DNA from: an uncultured Phycisphaerales bacterium
Lineage (GTDB): Bacteria; Planctomycetota; Phycisphaerae; Sedimentisphaerales; Anaerobacaceae
NCBI GenBank assembly: GCA_963718665.1
Contig: OY970359.1
Location: forward strand, 1,280,001-1,344,000
Length of the DNA stretch: 64,000 nucleotides
Reading direction: 5' to 3'
Shown: one piece after another, positions 19,713 to 24,637 of the stretch
How positions within the stretch are numbered: the first letter of the stretch is position 1
Layout: the number at the start of each line of letters is the position of its first letter
Program-made: the position numbers and the translations under genes
Notes under the pieces: generated by a model
What the model saw: only the letters and a program-made list of their open reading frames with translations
Databases searched by the model: none
Told to the model about the DNA's origin: nothing

Positions 19713-20348
19713 ATGTTATCCGCAGGGCTTGAATCAGGTCTCGATTGCAATGTTCTTGTCCTGAACAAGAACTATATGGCCATCCGCATAATCGGCGCGA
19801 GAAGGGCATTTTCCCTGCTTTGTCGCCGGCTGGCGGAGGTGGTGTCATACGAGGAGGGCTCATACGCCAATTACGATTTTCAGAGCTGGTGCGAGGTCAG
19901 TGAACTAAAGCGCAATTTCGAGCCGGATAATTATGACTGGGTATCGACAGTCAGTATATATGTGGCGGTGCCGAGGATAATCCGGCTGCTGTTTTATGAC
20001 CGCCTGCCGAGAAGCGAGGTAAAATTCAACCGCAGGAACATCTTCGCCCGCGACAGAAACCGCTGCCAGTATTGCGGCAAAAAACAACCCATCAGCGAAC
20101 TTTCACTCGACCACGTCCTTCCGCGCAGCGCGGGCGGCAAGGCAACCTGGACGAATATCGTCTGCGCCTGCACTAACTGCAACGTGAAAAAAGGCGGCAG
20201 AACACCCCAGCAGGCGAGAATGGCACTGATACAAAAACCCGTCAAGCCCAGGCACAGCCCGCTTATTCACATTCACTTAGGCCACCAGCGTTACAGCAGC
20301 TGGAAACAGTTCTTAGACAACGCTTACTGGTCTGTTGAGCTGAAGTAG
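19713..20348 (+). CDS. HNH endonuclease
   Basis: RDRNRCQYCG...DHVLPRSAGG...WTNIVCACTNCNVKKG. Confidence 0.9.
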   Translation: MLSAGLESGLDCNVLVLNKNYMAIRIIGARRAFSLLCRRLAEVVSYEEGSYANYDFQSWCEVSELKRNFEPDNYDWVSTVSIYVAVPRIIRLLFYDRLPRSEVKFNRRNIFARDRNRCQYCGKKQPISELSLDHVLPRSAGGKATWTNIVCACTNCNVKKGGRTPQQARMALIQKPVKPRHSPLIHIHLGHQRYSSWKQFLDNAYWSVELK

Positions 20349-20533
20349 ATTTTCAGCGGTCTGCCGCTTCTATACCTTCGCGATATTCCTATAGACAGGC
20401 CAGGTCGAGGTTTTTGGCGGCGGGTCGGCAAACGGGAATTGTCAAAGGCAAGGTCTTGTTTTTCCGGGGTATTTTTGGCGATTTTTGGGGTATTCAGGTC
20501 TCATCCGTAATATAATCCTGCGAGATTTTTTTC

Positions 20534-20563
20534 TTGACTTTCTCTACACTTGTAGAGTATTAT
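20534..20563 (+). promoter_or_regulatory. Promoter with a BlaI/MecI/CopY-type operator in the spacer
   Basis: TTGACT, 18 bp spacer, TATTAT; palindrome CTCTACA-CT-TGTAGAG at 20542-20557 contains TACA-N2-TGTA. Confidence 0.8.
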
Positions 20564-20594
20564 TGCACTTATAAAAACAATTAAGGGGCAAACT

Positions 20595-20984
20595 ATGACA
20601 AAAAGTCAATCGGAGCTAACAGCCGGAGAATGGGCGATTATACAGGCCGTGTGGGACAACGAGCCGTGTGCCGCGCCGACAATCCAGGAAGAGCTTGAGA
20701 AGAAAACCGGCTGGAGTTACAGCACAGTAAAGACAATGATGGACCGGATGGTCACCAAGGGACTGCTGCGGACGCAGAGAATCCGCAATCTCATCCTGTA
20801 CAGTTCTGTTATCACGAAAAAAGAGGCGCAGAGGGGCGAGATTATGCGTGCGGTCAAAAGGGCATTCGGTGGAGCGATGACGCCTATGATGCAATTTCTG
20901 TTAGACAGTAAAAATTTGACGGAAGAAGAGCTAAACCAGCTCGAAGCGATGATAAAAAGCAAGAAGGAAAAGGCAAAGAAGTAA
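20595..20984 (+). CDS. BlaI/MecI/CopY family repressor
   Basis: LTAGEWAIIQAVW, WSYSTVKTMMDRMVTKG and FGG...L...EL..L pattern. Confidence 0.93.
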   Translation: MTKSQSELTAGEWAIIQAVWDNEPCAAPTIQEELEKKTGWSYSTVKTMMDRMVTKGLLRTQRIRNLILYSSVITKKEAQRGEIMRAVKRAFGGAMTPMMQFLLDSKNLTEEELNQLEAMIKSKKEKAKK

Positions 20985-21023
20985 GCCGCGAGAGAGAAGA
21001 CCGCGTAACGGGACAAAGCACTT

Positions 21024-23261
21024 ATGAGCAACGTGCTTGAGCTAATAAATTCAGCGGGAAAAGGATTTGTGGAGTTTGCGTGGCCGATGCTGTGGCAGTC
21101 GGGCATGCTGGTGGTAATATTGCTGGCGTCGGATTATATACTGCGAAGAAAAGTTGGCGCGGTATTCCGCTATGGGCTGTGGATGCTGGTGATAGTGAAG
21201 CTGGTTTTGCCGACGTCGCTGTCAAGCCCTGTGAGTATCGGACAATTTATGATTGTGCCAGTGGGCTTAGTCAAAATCGCCGGCCCTGGAAAGCCGCAGG
21301 CAGGGAACATTTCGGGTATCCGGCTTTCTCCAGACGCGACTGCCGAATCGCGGCTAAATGCACTTTTGGCAGAGCAGCTTGCTCTGCTGAAACGGCCTGT
21401 TTCATCCCTTACCCAATCAAATCAATCTTCGGGAATGCTGACCTGGCAAGGGGGAGTATTGCTGCTGTGGGTGATTGTTGTTGGCGCGATGCTTTTATTG
21501 CTGATGCAGCGGGTGATGTTTGTCCTCGGTTTAGTGCGGCAGTCAAAGGAAGCCAACGACGAAATGAGGGATACGCTTGAGGGCTGTCGCAAAATAATGA
21601 ACATCGGCGGGTATGTGGGCCTGAAGGAATCGCCGAACGCGGCAAGTCCGGCAGTATGCGGGCTTTTCAGGCCGGTTATACTTTTGCCTGGGTGGCTTAA
21701 CGCAAATCTCGATGCAGGGCAGTTTAAAATTATTTTAATGCACGAGCTGGCGCATATAAGGCGCAGGGATTTATGGGTAAACCTTGTCCAGACGCTGCTG
21801 CAGATTGTTTATTTCTACAACCCGTTTATATGGCTGGCCAACTGGATGATAAGGCGCGTTCGCGAGCAGGCGGTTGACGAGGCGGTGCAGGTATCGCTTG
21901 GGGAAAAGTCGCCTCAATACCCGGAGATGCTATTGAATATTGCGAGATTTGCTTTCGGGCAGCCGGTGCTAAATATGCGTTCGATAGGCGTTGTCGAATC
22001 GAGGAGCGCGCTTACGGGACGCATTAAAAAGATGTTGAACGGGCCGGTGCCTAAAACTGCGAAGCTGAATCTTCCCGGGGTGATTGTTGTTATTTTAATC
22101 GGGCTGCTGACGCTGCCGATGGCAAAAAGTATGGCAGAAGGGTCAAATCGAAATGTCGTGACATGTAAAACAAAATCCAAATCGATATGCCTGGTGGCGG
22201 ACAGCAATCAATACTCGCTGAAGGATGCTTTCAAGAATGATTTTCGCATAGGCACGGCGTTGAGTTGTTATCAGCTTTCCGGTAAGGACGCGAATGACCT
22301 TTCGGTGGTGTCGTCGCAATTCAACTCAATTACGCCGGAACATTTTTTGAAATGGGCATACGTACATCCTGAGCCGGGGAAATATAATTTTGATATGGCA
22401 GACAATTACGTGGCGTTGGGCGAAAAAAATAAAATGTTCATTGTGGGTCACGTTCTTATCGCCCCGGACCAGATTCCTGACTGGGTGTTTCAGGATGACA
22501 ACGGCAAAACGGTCAGCCAAGAAGTTCTTCTCAAACGTATGCGGGAGCATATATTGACGGTTGTCAGCCGGTACAAGGGCCGAATAAACGGCTGGGACGT
22601 GGTCAACGAGGCCATCGGAAATGACGGCCAGATACTCGAAACAAAATGGTGCAAAATCATCGGCAAGGATTATATCCAGAAGGCCTTCGAATATGCCCAC
22701 GAAGCGGACCCTAACGCTGAGCTGTATTACAACGACTATAATGTGTGGTCCAAAAAAGATATAGACAGTATCGTTCGGTTAGTCGGCACACTTAAAGCGA
22801 AAGGCATCCGCATCGACGGCATAGGGATGCAGGCGCACTGGGGGCTTTACAGCCCGTCGCCAGACGCGATAGAAAACAGCATCGTCGCCCTTTCCCAATC
22901 GGGGGTCAAGGTAATGATTTCAGAAATAGACGTTTCGGTATTGCCTTGTTACGACATCAGCAAAGACGGCGATATTAAAAATGACCCCGCGTTACAGAAG
23001 AAGTTTAACCCATATCCCGATACGCTGCCCGCCGAGGTGCAGGAAAAACTTGCAGAGCGTTACGGGGAATTGTTCGCGGTTTTTCACAAGCACGCCGACA
23101 AAATCAGCCGGGTGACGCTCTGGGGGGTTCAGGACGGTCAATCGTGGCTGAACCGCTGGCCTGTCGAGGGGCGAGCGGATTATCCTTTGCTTTTTGACCG
23201 CAATCTAAAATCCAAGCCAGCTTATTACGCGGTAATCAAGACAGCACAGAACAACCAGTAA
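21024..23261 (+). CDS. BlaR1-type M56 metallopeptidase fused to a C-terminal GH10 (xylanase-like) domain
   Basis: M56 part: SPAVCGLFRPVILLP, HELAH, NPFIW, REQAVD, RIKKML plus TM. GH10 part (from ~22215): WDVVNE, YYNDYN, GIGMQAH, ISEID, TLWG, PLLFD. Confidence 0.92.
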   Translation: MSNVLELINSAGKGFVEFAWPMLWQSGMLVVILLASDYILRRKVGAVFRYGLWMLVIVKLVLPTSLSSPVSIGQFMIVPVGLVKIAGPGKPQAGNISGIRLSPDATAESRLNALLAEQLALLKRPVSSLTQSNQSSGMLTWQGGVLLLWVIVVGAMLLLLMQRVMFVLGLVRQSKEANDEMRDTLEGCRKIMNIGGYVGLKESPNAASPAVCGLFRPVILLPGWLNANLDAGQFKIILMHELAHIRRRDLWVNLVQTLLQIVYFYNPFIWLANWMIRRVREQAVDEAVQVSLGEKSPQYPEMLLNIARFAFGQPVLNMRSIGVVESRSALTGRIKKMLNGPVPKTAKLNLPGVIVVILIGLLTLPMAKSMAEGSNRNVVTCKTKSKSICLVADSNQYSLKDAFKNDFRIGTALSCYQLSGKDANDLSVVSSQFNSITPEHFLKWAYVHPEPGKYNFDMADNYVALGEKNKMFIVGHVLIAPDQIPDWVFQDDNGKTVSQEVLLKRMREHILTVVSRYKGRINGWDVVNEAIGNDGQILETKWCKIIGKDYIQKAFEYAHEADPNAELYYNDYNVWSKKDIDSIVRLVGTLKAKGIRIDGIGMQAHWGLYSPSPDAIENSIVALSQSGVKVMISEIDVSVLPCYDISKDGDIKNDPALQKKFNPYPDTLPAEVQEKLAERYGELFAVFHKHADKISRVTLWGVQDGQSWLNRWPVEGRADYPLLFDRNLKSKPAYYAVIKTAQNNQ

Positions 23262-23340
23262 ATATTCCAATGGCCTGCAAATCTAACCATTTTCTCTATT
23301 GCGCCGCTTCTTTGAAATTCCGGGCTAATTTGTTTGCGGG

Positions 23341-23369
23341 TTGGTTTTTTTTTGTCGCGCGGCTATAAT
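23341..23369 (+). promoter_or_regulatory. Putative promoter of dxr-rseP
   Basis: TTGGTT, 17 bp spacer, TATAAT. Confidence 0.5.
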
Positions 23370-23398
23370 GGCACCTTAATTTATGAGGCGCCTTTTTT

Positions 23399-24637
23399 GT
23401 GCATAACAGACGTATAGCCATATTGGGTTCGACGGGGTCGATAGGAACGACGGCCCTGCGGGTTATCGACGGGCTGAACGATTTGCCCAGAGATAAATCG
23501 CCGCGGTTTGATGTTGTTGCGCTTAGCGGGCACAGCAATATAAAGCTGCTGGCGGAACAGGTACGGCAATACAGACCAAAATACGCGGTAGTCAGCGATA
23601 TTGATTACGTCGAGCAATTTCGCCGGCAGGTCAAAGGTCTGGACGTTAAAATCCTCGCAGGCCCGGAAGGACTGACCGAAATCGCGGAGCTTGAGCAGGT
23701 TGATACGGTTCTTGCGGCTGTTGTGGGGGTAGCGGGCCTACAGGCGGTCCTGGCGGCGGTACGCAAAGGCAAAAGGGTCGCGATAGCGAATAAAGAGCCG
23801 TTAGTTATAGCGGGGCAGTTGATTACGACGGAGGCGAAAAAATACGGCGCGGAGCTGCTGCCTGTCGATAGCGAACACTCGGCGATATTCCAATCGCTTT
23901 CCGCGGGCAGGCACGAGGAGGTAGCCAAGATAATCCTGACGACATCGGGCGGGCCATTCAGAAAGGCGAACCCGGCGGGGATACCGGACGCGACTATTGA
24001 GCAGGTTTTAGCGCACCCGGTTTGGCGTATGGGGCCGAAGATTACGGTGGATTCGGCGACGATGATGAACAAGGCACTAGAGATAATTGAGGCACGATGG
24101 CTTTTTGACGTGCCAGCGGAAAAAATAGAAGTTCTGGTTCATCCTGAGTCGATAGTTCATTCGATGGTGGAGTACGTGGACGGGTCAGTGATAGCGCAAC
24201 TTGGATGCCCGGATATGTCTTTGCCGATTCAATATGCGCTGACGTATCCCGCGCGAGTGCCCGGGGCGGCCAAGAAGCTCGACCTTAGCCGGCTGAAGAC
24301 GCTGACGTTCGAGAAGCCAAACCCAGAGGTGTTTCCGGCGATTCAGATGGGTTTTGAGGCCGCGAAAAAGGGCGGGACGGCAGCAGCGGTATTTAACGCG
24401 GCGAATGAGGCGGCGGTAGAGCAATTTCTCGCGGGTAATATAAAATTTGGTAATATCGTGGAGCTTGTCCGGCGATGCCTGGACAATTGTGACGCAAAAA
24501 CTGACGCGTCGCTCGAAGAATTGTTAGAGGCAGATGCCTGGGCAAAGAAAGAGGTAACTGAATGTCTGAAAAGCCAGAGGACAGGGAGCAAAAAACAGAG
24601 AACACAAAACACTCACCGCAAACAGCTTCACGGCTGA
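23399..24637 (+). CDS. dxr: 1-deoxy-D-xylulose-5-phosphate reductoisomerase
   Basis: LGSTGSIG, ANKE, LPVDSEH, MGPKITVDSAT and NAANE motifs. Confidence 0.97.
   Translation: MHNRRIAILGSTGSIGTTALRVIDGLNDLPRDKSPRFDVVALSGHSNIKLLAEQVRQYRPKYAVVSDIDYVEQFRRQVKGLDVKILAGPEGLTEIAELEQVDTVLAAVVGVAGLQAVLAAVRKGKRVAIANKEPLVIAGQLITTEAKKYGAELLPVDSEHSAIFQSLSAGRHEEVAKIILTTSGGPFRKANPAGIPDATIEQVLAHPVWRMGPKITVDSATMMNKALEIIEARWLFDVPAEKIEVLVHPESIVHSMVEYVDGSVIAQLGCPDMSLPIQYALTYPARVPGAAKKLDLSRLKTLTFEKPNPEVFPAIQMGFEAAKKGGTAAAVFNAANEAAVEQFLAGNIKFGNIVELVRRCLDNCDAKTDASLEELLEADAWAKKEVTECLKSQRTGSKKQRTQNTHRKQLHG

Follow-up and report, generated by a model that had tools for sequence, protein, structure and literature searches.

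According to the available part of PMC9834060, the BlaI/BlaR1 and MecI/MecR1 systems of Staphylococcus aureus combine a blaI-type gene with a neighbouring gene for an M56 receptor, an operator of the TACA-NN-TGTA type and a HExxH...E zinc site. The receptors possess four transmembrane (TM) helices with the loop EL1 and a signal-peptidase site after the last TM helix, and the repressor carries a Phe at the P1' position of its cleavage site (PMC9834060). All of these features recur at a blaI-M56 locus in the window, a 64,000-nucleotide stretch (contig OY970359.1, positions 1,280,001 to 1,344,000) of an uncultured Phycisphaerales bacterium. The difference from S. aureus BlaR1 is that the receptor ends in a glycoside hydrolase family 10 (GH10) barrel instead of an SxxK penicillin-binding domain, and that the predicted targets are glycoside hydrolases, not blaZ or mecA. 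As judged from sequence comparison, this is a real and new variant of the BlaI/BlaR1 kind, for which a glycan regulon has good comparative support and the sensing step is proposed. It appears that an antibiotic-type BlaI/BlaR1 switch has been rewired to plant polysaccharides in a sediment bacterium, and we favour, with modest confidence, a BlaR1 variant that senses glycans and for which a cello- or glucomanno-oligosaccharide is a more probable ligand than xylan.

The closest functional parallel is RsgI6 of Clostridium thermocellum, the partner of sigma-I6, in which an extracytoplasmic GH10 domain of very low activity serves as polysaccharide sensor for glycoside hydrolase genes in an autoregulated system (PMC4711584, in the part accessible). 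A first-pass annotation of the window, made from the letters alone, had stated that it knew of no characterised example; for a GH10 sensor as such this precedent exists, whereas none was found on a BlaR1-type protein, and a search of the open-licence literature yielded no paper that describes M56 fused to GH10 or a glycan regulon under BlaI control. As far as PMC4711584 describes it, RsgI6 is an anti-sigma factor that frees an alternative sigma factor, whereas the window encodes a zinc protease acting on a repressor in a Gram-negative periplasmic setting, with a predicted regulon devoid of xylanases. The receptor is not an RsgI-type protein, as Pfam finds only M56 and GH10 and no RsgI_N domain, and the partner gene is blaI. 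Outside staphylococcal resistance, BlaI/M56 pairs with small autoregulated regulons have been described as PvmSR in Pseudomonas aeruginosa (bioRxiv 10.64898/2026.08.03.742534) and as BlaI_0696/1845 in C. thermocellum (PMC8457756). Unlike the window protein, PvmS has neither a sensor domain nor a GH domain in the accessible part of the preprint, and the C. thermocellum regulons, as the available text of PMC8457756 describes them, are not glycan-related and contain no glycoside hydrolase, with no GH domain in the receptors. Planctomycete and verrucomicrobial extracytoplasmic function (ECF) sigma factors similarly have a hypervariable C-terminal cargo (PMC7671368, seen in part), and 13 ECF proteins carry a GH10 domain of the same clade as the window protein (see below), but these are sigma factors and not protease-repressor pairs.

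The M56-GH10 fusion is real and rare. The first-pass annotation had described an operator, blaI and a single open reading frame (ORF) joining M56, a TM segment and GH10, and had named misassembly as a possible refutation; Pfam, recurrence and contigs bear the architecture out. Both domains are present in at least 10 protein clusters among the 120 listed (55-100% identity), and all 10 members of the fusion alignment match both families. The fusion is found in 4 of 41 related genomes, our genome counted, and when 401 genomes from across the order were queried with the junction, these 4 alone contained it. The sources of close relatives assign them to Sedimentisphaerales or Phycisphaerales. P0009 and P0010 were the sole matches with both domains among the 150 listed from a profile search of 1.84 billion representatives, and at least one fragmentary fusion was present among the 80 loci of a metagenome scan by M56 patterns. 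Contigs of all four sequencing runs compared span the M56/GH10 junction. Of these, X1 and X2 possibly represent the sample from which the window stems, and X5 and X11 come from other studies and other strains with many letter differences. Recurrence in clusters and related genomes together with these independent contigs rules out a misassembly. A search for RNA data sets holding the sequence found none among those listed. Position 22519 is A in the window and G in all four runs, and residue Q499 of the window protein is Arg in 93% of GH10 relatives and in P0001; the base in the window may therefore be an error or a private variant.

The protease half resembles its described counterparts. The zinc ligands H240, H244 and E281, the base E241 as well as D285 and R333 all match the M56 family (BlaR1 equivalents H201/E202/H205/E242; PMC9834060, in part), so that the protein combines the PF05569 match with the HExxH motif, the ExxxD ligands and the downstream Arg typical of the family. 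E281 and D285 are invariant in 203 of 203 aligned M56 proteins, which had been selected by the HExxH motif. The protein is not a member of the beta-lactam-sensing BlaR1/MecR1 family: it scores 121 bits against a cut-off of 400 with NF000326 (blaR1_generic), the match ends at residue 377, and the C-terminus is GH10 and not an SxxK penicillin-binding domain. Residues 147-350 can be aligned with chains 8EXS/8EXP of the BlaR1 cryo-EM structures (E 3e-6). Four TM segments correspond to maxima of hydrophobicity at 22-40, 44-70, 143-161 and 348-366, and five Lys/Arg residues precede TM4 and two follow it. The BlaR1 alignment, the four TM segments, the charge bias around TM4 and a signal-peptidase motif behind it are consistent with a GH10 domain located where the BlaR1 sensor lies, outside the cytoplasm, as the first-pass annotation had presumed, and we infer that the zinc site faces the cytoplasm and GH10 the periplasm. 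The BlaI protein can be aligned to 1SD4 and 1OKR and has the winged helix and the TACA-NN-TGTA palindrome in its own promoter that characterize the BlaI/MecI/CopY family. Its residues Q100-F101 are the alignment counterpart, against 1SD4, of N101-F102, the site at which S. aureus BlaI is cut (PMC9834060, in part).

The GH10 domain was described in the first-pass annotation as a full barrel. This holds for its length by Pfam, but not for its cleft, which is not canonical. With 102 sequences, AlphaFold predicted both domains as folded (pLDDT 80.6) and their relative position not (pTM 0.53, linker under 50); with 10 sequences the model was unusable (pLDDT 46). The GH10 blocks of the model are mostly above pLDDT 80, and the best Foldseek matches are all GH10 proteins, xylanases throughout, with a TM-score of 0.94-0.96 by target length. 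To describe the cleft, 11 active-site residues were taken from the IXT6 list (PMC13513542, seen in part) and mapped by motif and spacing, not by superposition. The acid/base E529 (22608) and the nucleophile E634 (22923) are kept, as are E439, K443, H476, H605, W700 and W708, and three of the 11 positions have changed: N45 to H440 (22341), W85 to A480 (22461) and R145 to L538 (22635), the first of each pair in IXT6 numbering. The lost residues are kept in 98-100% of ordinary GH10s. The domain thus has the full GH10 fold with both glutamates, but not the active site of a canonical GH10 endo-xylanase. Between two and five of the 11 positions differ in 10 of 10 fusions, and none in 100 of 109 ordinary GH10s. 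The genome also encodes an ordinary GH10 (G000 C1:252413-253543). The Trp of the H-x-x-x-W motif is absent from all 11 M56-fused and all 13 ECF-fused domains and from three of the 112 others in a set of 136 GH10 domains; no source was found in the literature on the effect of mutating Trp84/85. These 27 Trp-less domains, which include every M56-fused and every ECF-fused one, form one clade (FastTree support 0.98; 98/88 in a 34-row IQ-TREE analysis). The nucleophile Glu is present in 24 of 24 regulator-fused domains, while the acid/base is missing in P0004 and P0010, so that both catalytic glutamates are found in 9 of the 11 M56-fused domains. A comparison of the three intact genes gave dN/dS values of 0.11-0.13 (GH10) and 0.13-0.23 (M56 core, residues 139-345), next to 0.08 (dxr) and 0.04 (HNH gene); by this measure, purifying selection acts on GH10. 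The cleft pattern suggests a lowered or redirected activity with the fold retained. ECF sigma factors that have a membrane segment and a Trp-less GH10 (L145:1626-3536; P0011-P0014, P0121, P0230-P0235, P0242, P0245) represent at least two different ECF backgrounds, one labelled Verrucomicrobiota, and are a second candidate GH10-sensing system.

What the locus might control was addressed with the operator. A single perfect copy of CTCTACA-NN-TGTAGAG exists in the 2.61-Mb genome, in front of blaI. The identical palindrome precedes blaI in 13 congeners, a matching one was found at 57 metagenomic loci, and the promoter geometry at blaI is unchanged at orthologous loci. Perfect matches alone read as a purely autoregulatory operon, an interpretation that was dropped after near matches had been annotated. 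For these, a matrix was built from the 57 blaI self-operators of other organisms (80 metagenomic loci fetched; consensus CTYTACA-NN-TGTARAG), where a locus was kept if its BlaI was at least 64% identical and its site within three mismatches; training outside the genome avoids circularity. Seven of the eight best-ranking sites in the genome lie at blaI, at glycoside hydrolase promoters or inside a glycoside hydrolase gene (Table 1). Six promoter sites in G000 are at C1:1058561, 300805, 2311752, 2190677, 2223658 and 1517131. None of 150 column-permuted matrices placed three GH5 promoters in its top 15, and among 210 half-site permutations only the real motif has a site with at most two mismatches close to one of the 15 GH5 starts examined. 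The glycan targets do not include sites within coding regions, at panB or at a membrane protein of 1016 amino acids (present outside the lineage as well), and the MFS-GH130-MFS-GH94 operon of the genome is without an operator site. Two of the GH5 proteins match 1VJZ and 3W0K (bifunctional endomannanase/endoglucanase), where one was searched and the other is 70% identical to it; one of the two genes leads the operon with GH26. The GH12 protein matches cellulases. The probable glycoside hydrolase is a secreted protein of 632 amino acids from an uncharacterised family (G000 C1:2223647-2225596; L349:2648-4594) that is found in 18 of 24 congeners and is assigned to PF28584/PF28585 by Atlas features, with no PDB match; its place in the regulon suggests a beta-glucan or mannan substrate.

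As the predicted targets are beta-glucan and beta-mannan genes, the ligand is probably a cello- or glucomanno-oligosaccharide. Xylo-oligosaccharides, which the first-pass annotation had put forward for its proposed assays, are not supported as the obvious ligand by predicted targets of the GH5, GH12, GH26 and GH130 families. A xylan regulon was rejected, since the xylan locus (GH10, GH43, MFS and, by motif, a LacI-type regulator) has no operator, with a best score of 2.1 bits in 20 kb. One could still imagine that xylo-oligosaccharides, as the ligand of ancestral GH10s, signal the presence of plant cell walls to the receptor, which then induces cellulases and mannanases. The xylanase-like structure and the six conserved cleft residues outside the catalytic pair would agree with this, as would the location of one Trp-less domain in a xylan locus and the binding of xylan as well as cellulose by RsgI6-GH10 (PMC4711584, in part). 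With the xylan locus lacking an operator and the glycone-side residues N45 and W85 replaced, we regard this as very improbable.

The comparison with congeners adds to the ranking. The GH10 lineage comprises six close relatives, G000 (our genome), G007, G019, G017, G006 and G020; in a tree of dxr and BlaI the five that could be included group with 100% local support, and G020 was placed by BlaI and HNH identity. The receptor is intact in G000, G007 and G019. G017 has a one-base frameshift near the GH10 end, which may be an assembly error, and in G006 and G020 the receptor is almost wholly deleted and blaI is kept. That half of the lineage is without an intact receptor points to a recent loss, to cleavage by the second M56 protein described below, or to a receptor that is dispensable. 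Secondary sites with at most one mismatch number 6, 8, 7, 6, 4 and 3 in G000, G007, G017, G019, G006 and G020, respectively, against 1, 1, 1, 1, 1 and 3 in reversed-pattern controls. Each of the eight congeners that share this blaI and its operator and carry another cargo has none, and the ten congeners without this blaI have four in total. Twenty of the 34 lineage sites are at glycan promoters, six before prepilin-type genes, six in coding regions and two elsewhere. The glycan promoters are those of three GH5 genes, the GH12 gene, the probable glycoside hydrolase, an MFS-GH130 operon and a CBM4_9 protein, the last two with sites in sister genomes. Orthologous GH5 promoters score at most 3.7 bits outside the lineage versus 16.6-22 inside, and at the MFS and probable glycoside hydrolase promoters, where the flanks can be aligned, local changes create the palindrome only in lineage members. 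The BlaI regulon that the first-pass annotation had inferred is supported, as a glycan-related one, by the ranking and this comparison, and its predicted membership is the new element beyond that annotation. Both receptor-deleted genomes have TTGATT in place of the blaI -35 box TTGACT (L030:6361-6380, L031:1039-1070), a change that would reduce the amount of repressor. In five of the six lineage genomes, the operator also precedes prepilin-type N-methyl/DUF1559-like genes (G000 C1:1517131; L379-L382, L384), which ties these unexplained planctomycete genes to a glycan regulon.

A second blaI-M56 pair (G000 C1:1448809-1452108; L059) with a Big_5 cargo is present in the same six genomes and in G011. 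It has tandem operators of the TTC(T/G)ACA type, and its M56 frame varies from 779 to 1785 amino acids among seven congeners. Because the two BlaIs have nearly identical recognition helices, cross-talk between them is possible. This paralog bears on another explanation, in which a hotspot of cargo swapping has thrown up the fusion by chance and for a short time, BlaI controls nothing but its own operon, and the sites at glycoside hydrolase promoters belong to the paralog or another regulator or are inherited look-alikes. Such an origin would agree with the rarity of the fusion in the order, with the lost or broken receptor in half of the lineage, with the chance C-terminal capture proposed for planctomycete ECF proteins (PMC7671368, in part) and with the left arm of the GH12 site, which doubles as a -35 box. 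However, all 10 secondary sites scored are matched 7-17 bits better by the matrix of the BlaI studied here than by that of the paralog, which has no GH promoter in its top 14; this argues against the paralog as the owner of the sites. Together with sites at seven different glycan promoters, palindromes newly made in lineage members, the low dN/dS of GH10 and fusions that persist to 55-57% identity, this makes a fortuitous fusion quite improbable in our opinion.

The most serious competitor concerns the role of GH10 itself. The first-pass annotation had passed over both a signal-peptidase motif after TM4 and the swapping of cargo at this locus. Of 24 congeners, 14 have the blaI-M56 pair with the same operator; dxr follows immediately downstream in every case where the contig is long enough to show it, and in eight of the 14 TM4 is followed by CARDB, CarboxypepD_reg or Big_5 domains (Ig-type among the cargos) or, in G014, by no assigned domain. 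By these comparisons the locus upstream of dxr swaps its C-terminal cargo. One might then propose that TM4 is an internal signal peptide, that GH10 is released as a periplasmic enzyme or binder and is itself a product of the BlaI regulon, and that the M56 core senses the state of the envelope or membrane or its own cleavage, as BlaR relatives devoid of a sensor have to do. Small residues at P+2 and P+4 after TM4, an A-x-A motif, are found in 173 of 202 M56 relatives whatever their cargo, the LPMA element of TM4 is also the N-terminal leader of free Trp-less GH10s in G011, L222 and G356, most of the fused domains retain both catalytic glutamates, and sensor-less BlaIR systems exist (bioRxiv 10.64898/2026.08.03.742534, seen in part). 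BlaR1, however, is cut by SpsB at the equivalent place and yet is a tethered sensor, for which a shielding of the site by the ligand has been proposed (PMC9834060, in part), and the A-x-A motif hence fits a tethered sensor with turnover and a released cargo alike. A released cargo also leaves unexplained why the GH10 lineage alone gained operators at glycan genes and why the cleft has lost residues that ordinary GH10s almost always keep. We consider it possible, albeit unlikely. Nine of the 202 relatives have, in addition, a lipobox-like Cys at P+4, directly after TM4 (for example P0053, P0064 and P0070-P0072), which suggests that cargo is released as a lipoprotein in those M56 proteins. Next to dxr, L041:2263-3993 and L222:5221-6573 contain the truncated start of a dxr gene, part of a GH10 and a Trp-less GH10 that is free and has a leader of the M56 type. 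The dxr promoter thus bears signs of duplication and recombination, which may be traces of the formation or the splitting of the fusion. Two congeners that differ in their cargo have a gene for a HEAT and S41 peptidase protein between the blaI locus and dxr (L030:7042-8658, L039:3756-5273), which marks the blaI-dxr interval as an insertion hotspot.

Several observations weigh against a glycan-sensing receptor with its own regulon. The signal-peptidase motif of TM4 and the same leader on free GH10s indicate that GH10 may work detached. Loss of the Trp is not exclusive to regulators: of the three Trp-less domains outside them, two belong to free proteins, and one is the rear half of a tandem GH10 encoded in a xylan locus (P0229, L146). 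The receptor is not intact in three of the six lineage genomes, which nevertheless keep blaI and three to seven sites. Fourteen of the 34 lineage sites lie away from glycan promoters, and the enrichment at GH5 starts (hypergeometric p ~4e-4) was calculated for a category picked after the first matches. Gains are patchy, with no site at the GH5a promoter of G017, the GH12 promoter of G007, the probable glycoside hydrolase promoters of G019 and G020 or the MFS promoters of G000 and G019. G004, which has no blaI match, has a 14.5-bit site before a GH12 gene. Lastly, with one origin in close kin, the association of cargo and regulon is a single data point at the receptor level, although seven promoters gained sites.

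On the preferred reading of GH10 as a tethered glycan sensor, BlaI would repress its own operon and a small set of beta-glucan and beta-mannan genes, repression being assumed from BlaR1 systems. A beta-1,4-linked cello- or glucomanno-oligosaccharide would enter the periplasm and occupy the altered GH10 cleft, and this occupancy would shift GH10 or EL1, shield the signal-peptidase site, or both; in BlaR1, loop EL1 is pushed aside by the ligand and the sensor is pulled towards the membrane (PMC9834060, in part). Cleavage of BlaI between Q100 and F101 by the M56 protease would follow and would derepress the regulon, to which the receptor itself belongs. As a default, we assume that an enzyme with slow or no turnover binds the ligand non-covalently, as in RsgI6, and we give less weight to a covalent capture on E634. 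The glycosyl-enzyme intermediate of a working GH10 is short-lived. A covalent model therefore requires a crippled deglycosylation step, which the cleft changes allow and do not show, and the invariant nucleophile does not separate binding from covalent capture. The boldest form, which we think rather doubtful, is that GH10 is a crippled xylanase trapped by a beta-1,4-glucan or mannan fragment as a long-lived glycosyl-Glu634 adduct, that is, a covalent carbohydrate receptor. GH10 would then relate to xylanases as the sensor of BlaR1 does to class D beta-lactamases. The Trp-less clade would then be a portable sensor for M56 and ECF proteins, and its swap into an autoregulatory cassette, after which seven or more glycan promoters of a single genus gained operators, would make the birth of a regulon visible.

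The features of the locus and the best-ranking predicted operators are collected in Table 1. An HNH-domain gene (window 19713-20348) upstream of blaI is conserved and, among the loci fetched, adjoins blaI only in the GH10 lineage.

Table 1. Features of the blaI-M56-GH10 locus (window coordinates) and best-ranking predicted BlaI operators in the genome
Feature	Position	Strand	Evidence or remark
Sigma-70-type blaI promoter, TTGACT/18-nt spacer/TATTAT	20534..20563	+	Best of 4 promoter matches in 20300-23600, 10/12
Predicted BlaI operator CTCTACA-CT-TGTAGAG (general form CTCTACA-NN-TGTAGAG)	20542..20557		Fills the promoter spacer
BlaI/MecI/CopY-family repressor, 129 aa	20595..20984	+	PF03965 Penicillinase_R, E 4e-27, 95.4 bits vs cut-off 22.6
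M56-GH10 fusion gene, 745 aa	21024..23261	+	Single ORF, Pfam M56 and GH10
Peptidase_M56 membrane zinc protease with TM1-3 and extracytoplasmic loop EL1, residues 27-335	21102..22028	+	PF05569, E 3e-42, 145 bits vs 31
HELAH zinc motif, residues 240-244 (H240, E241, H244)	21741..21755	+	Third ligand E281 at 21864-21866
TM4 (348-366), then P-M-A-K-S-M-A, signal-peptidase-I-type A-x-A site	22065..22136	+	
GH10 (beta/alpha)8 barrel, residues 398-739	22215..23240	+	Glyco_hydro_10, profile positions 1-310 of 311, E 2e-88
dxr, constant downstream neighbour and locus marker	23399..24637	+	Own TATAAT; not counted as part of the system
Operator rank 1: self site (blaI)			26.8 bits
Operator rank 2: GH12 promoter			21.6 bits; site over -35 box
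Operator rank 3: GH5 promoter			20.8 bits
Operator rank 4: prepilin-type gene	G000 C1:1517131		17.2 bits
Operator rank 5: GH5-GH26 operon			17.2 bits; divergent from acetylesterase
Operator rank 6: third GH5			16.6 bits
Operator rank 7: inside another GH5			16.0 bits; 72 bases inside
Operator rank 8: probable glycoside hydrolase			15.6 bits; just after -10 box

Phycisphaerae commonly have BlaI/M56 pairs, whose outer domains vary hugely. Because the chemistry of the cargo is recognisable in this case and the predicted regulon matches it, the modularity of BlaR1 signalling and the sensor role of such cargos become testable. If the reading proposed here is true, the BlaR1 mechanism would serve not only antibiotic resistance but also the foraging for polysaccharides by uncultured bacteria of sediment and peat, the congeners would form a series that shows the rise and decay of a regulon, and the exchange of cargo domains would offer a plug-in route to oligosaccharide biosensors.

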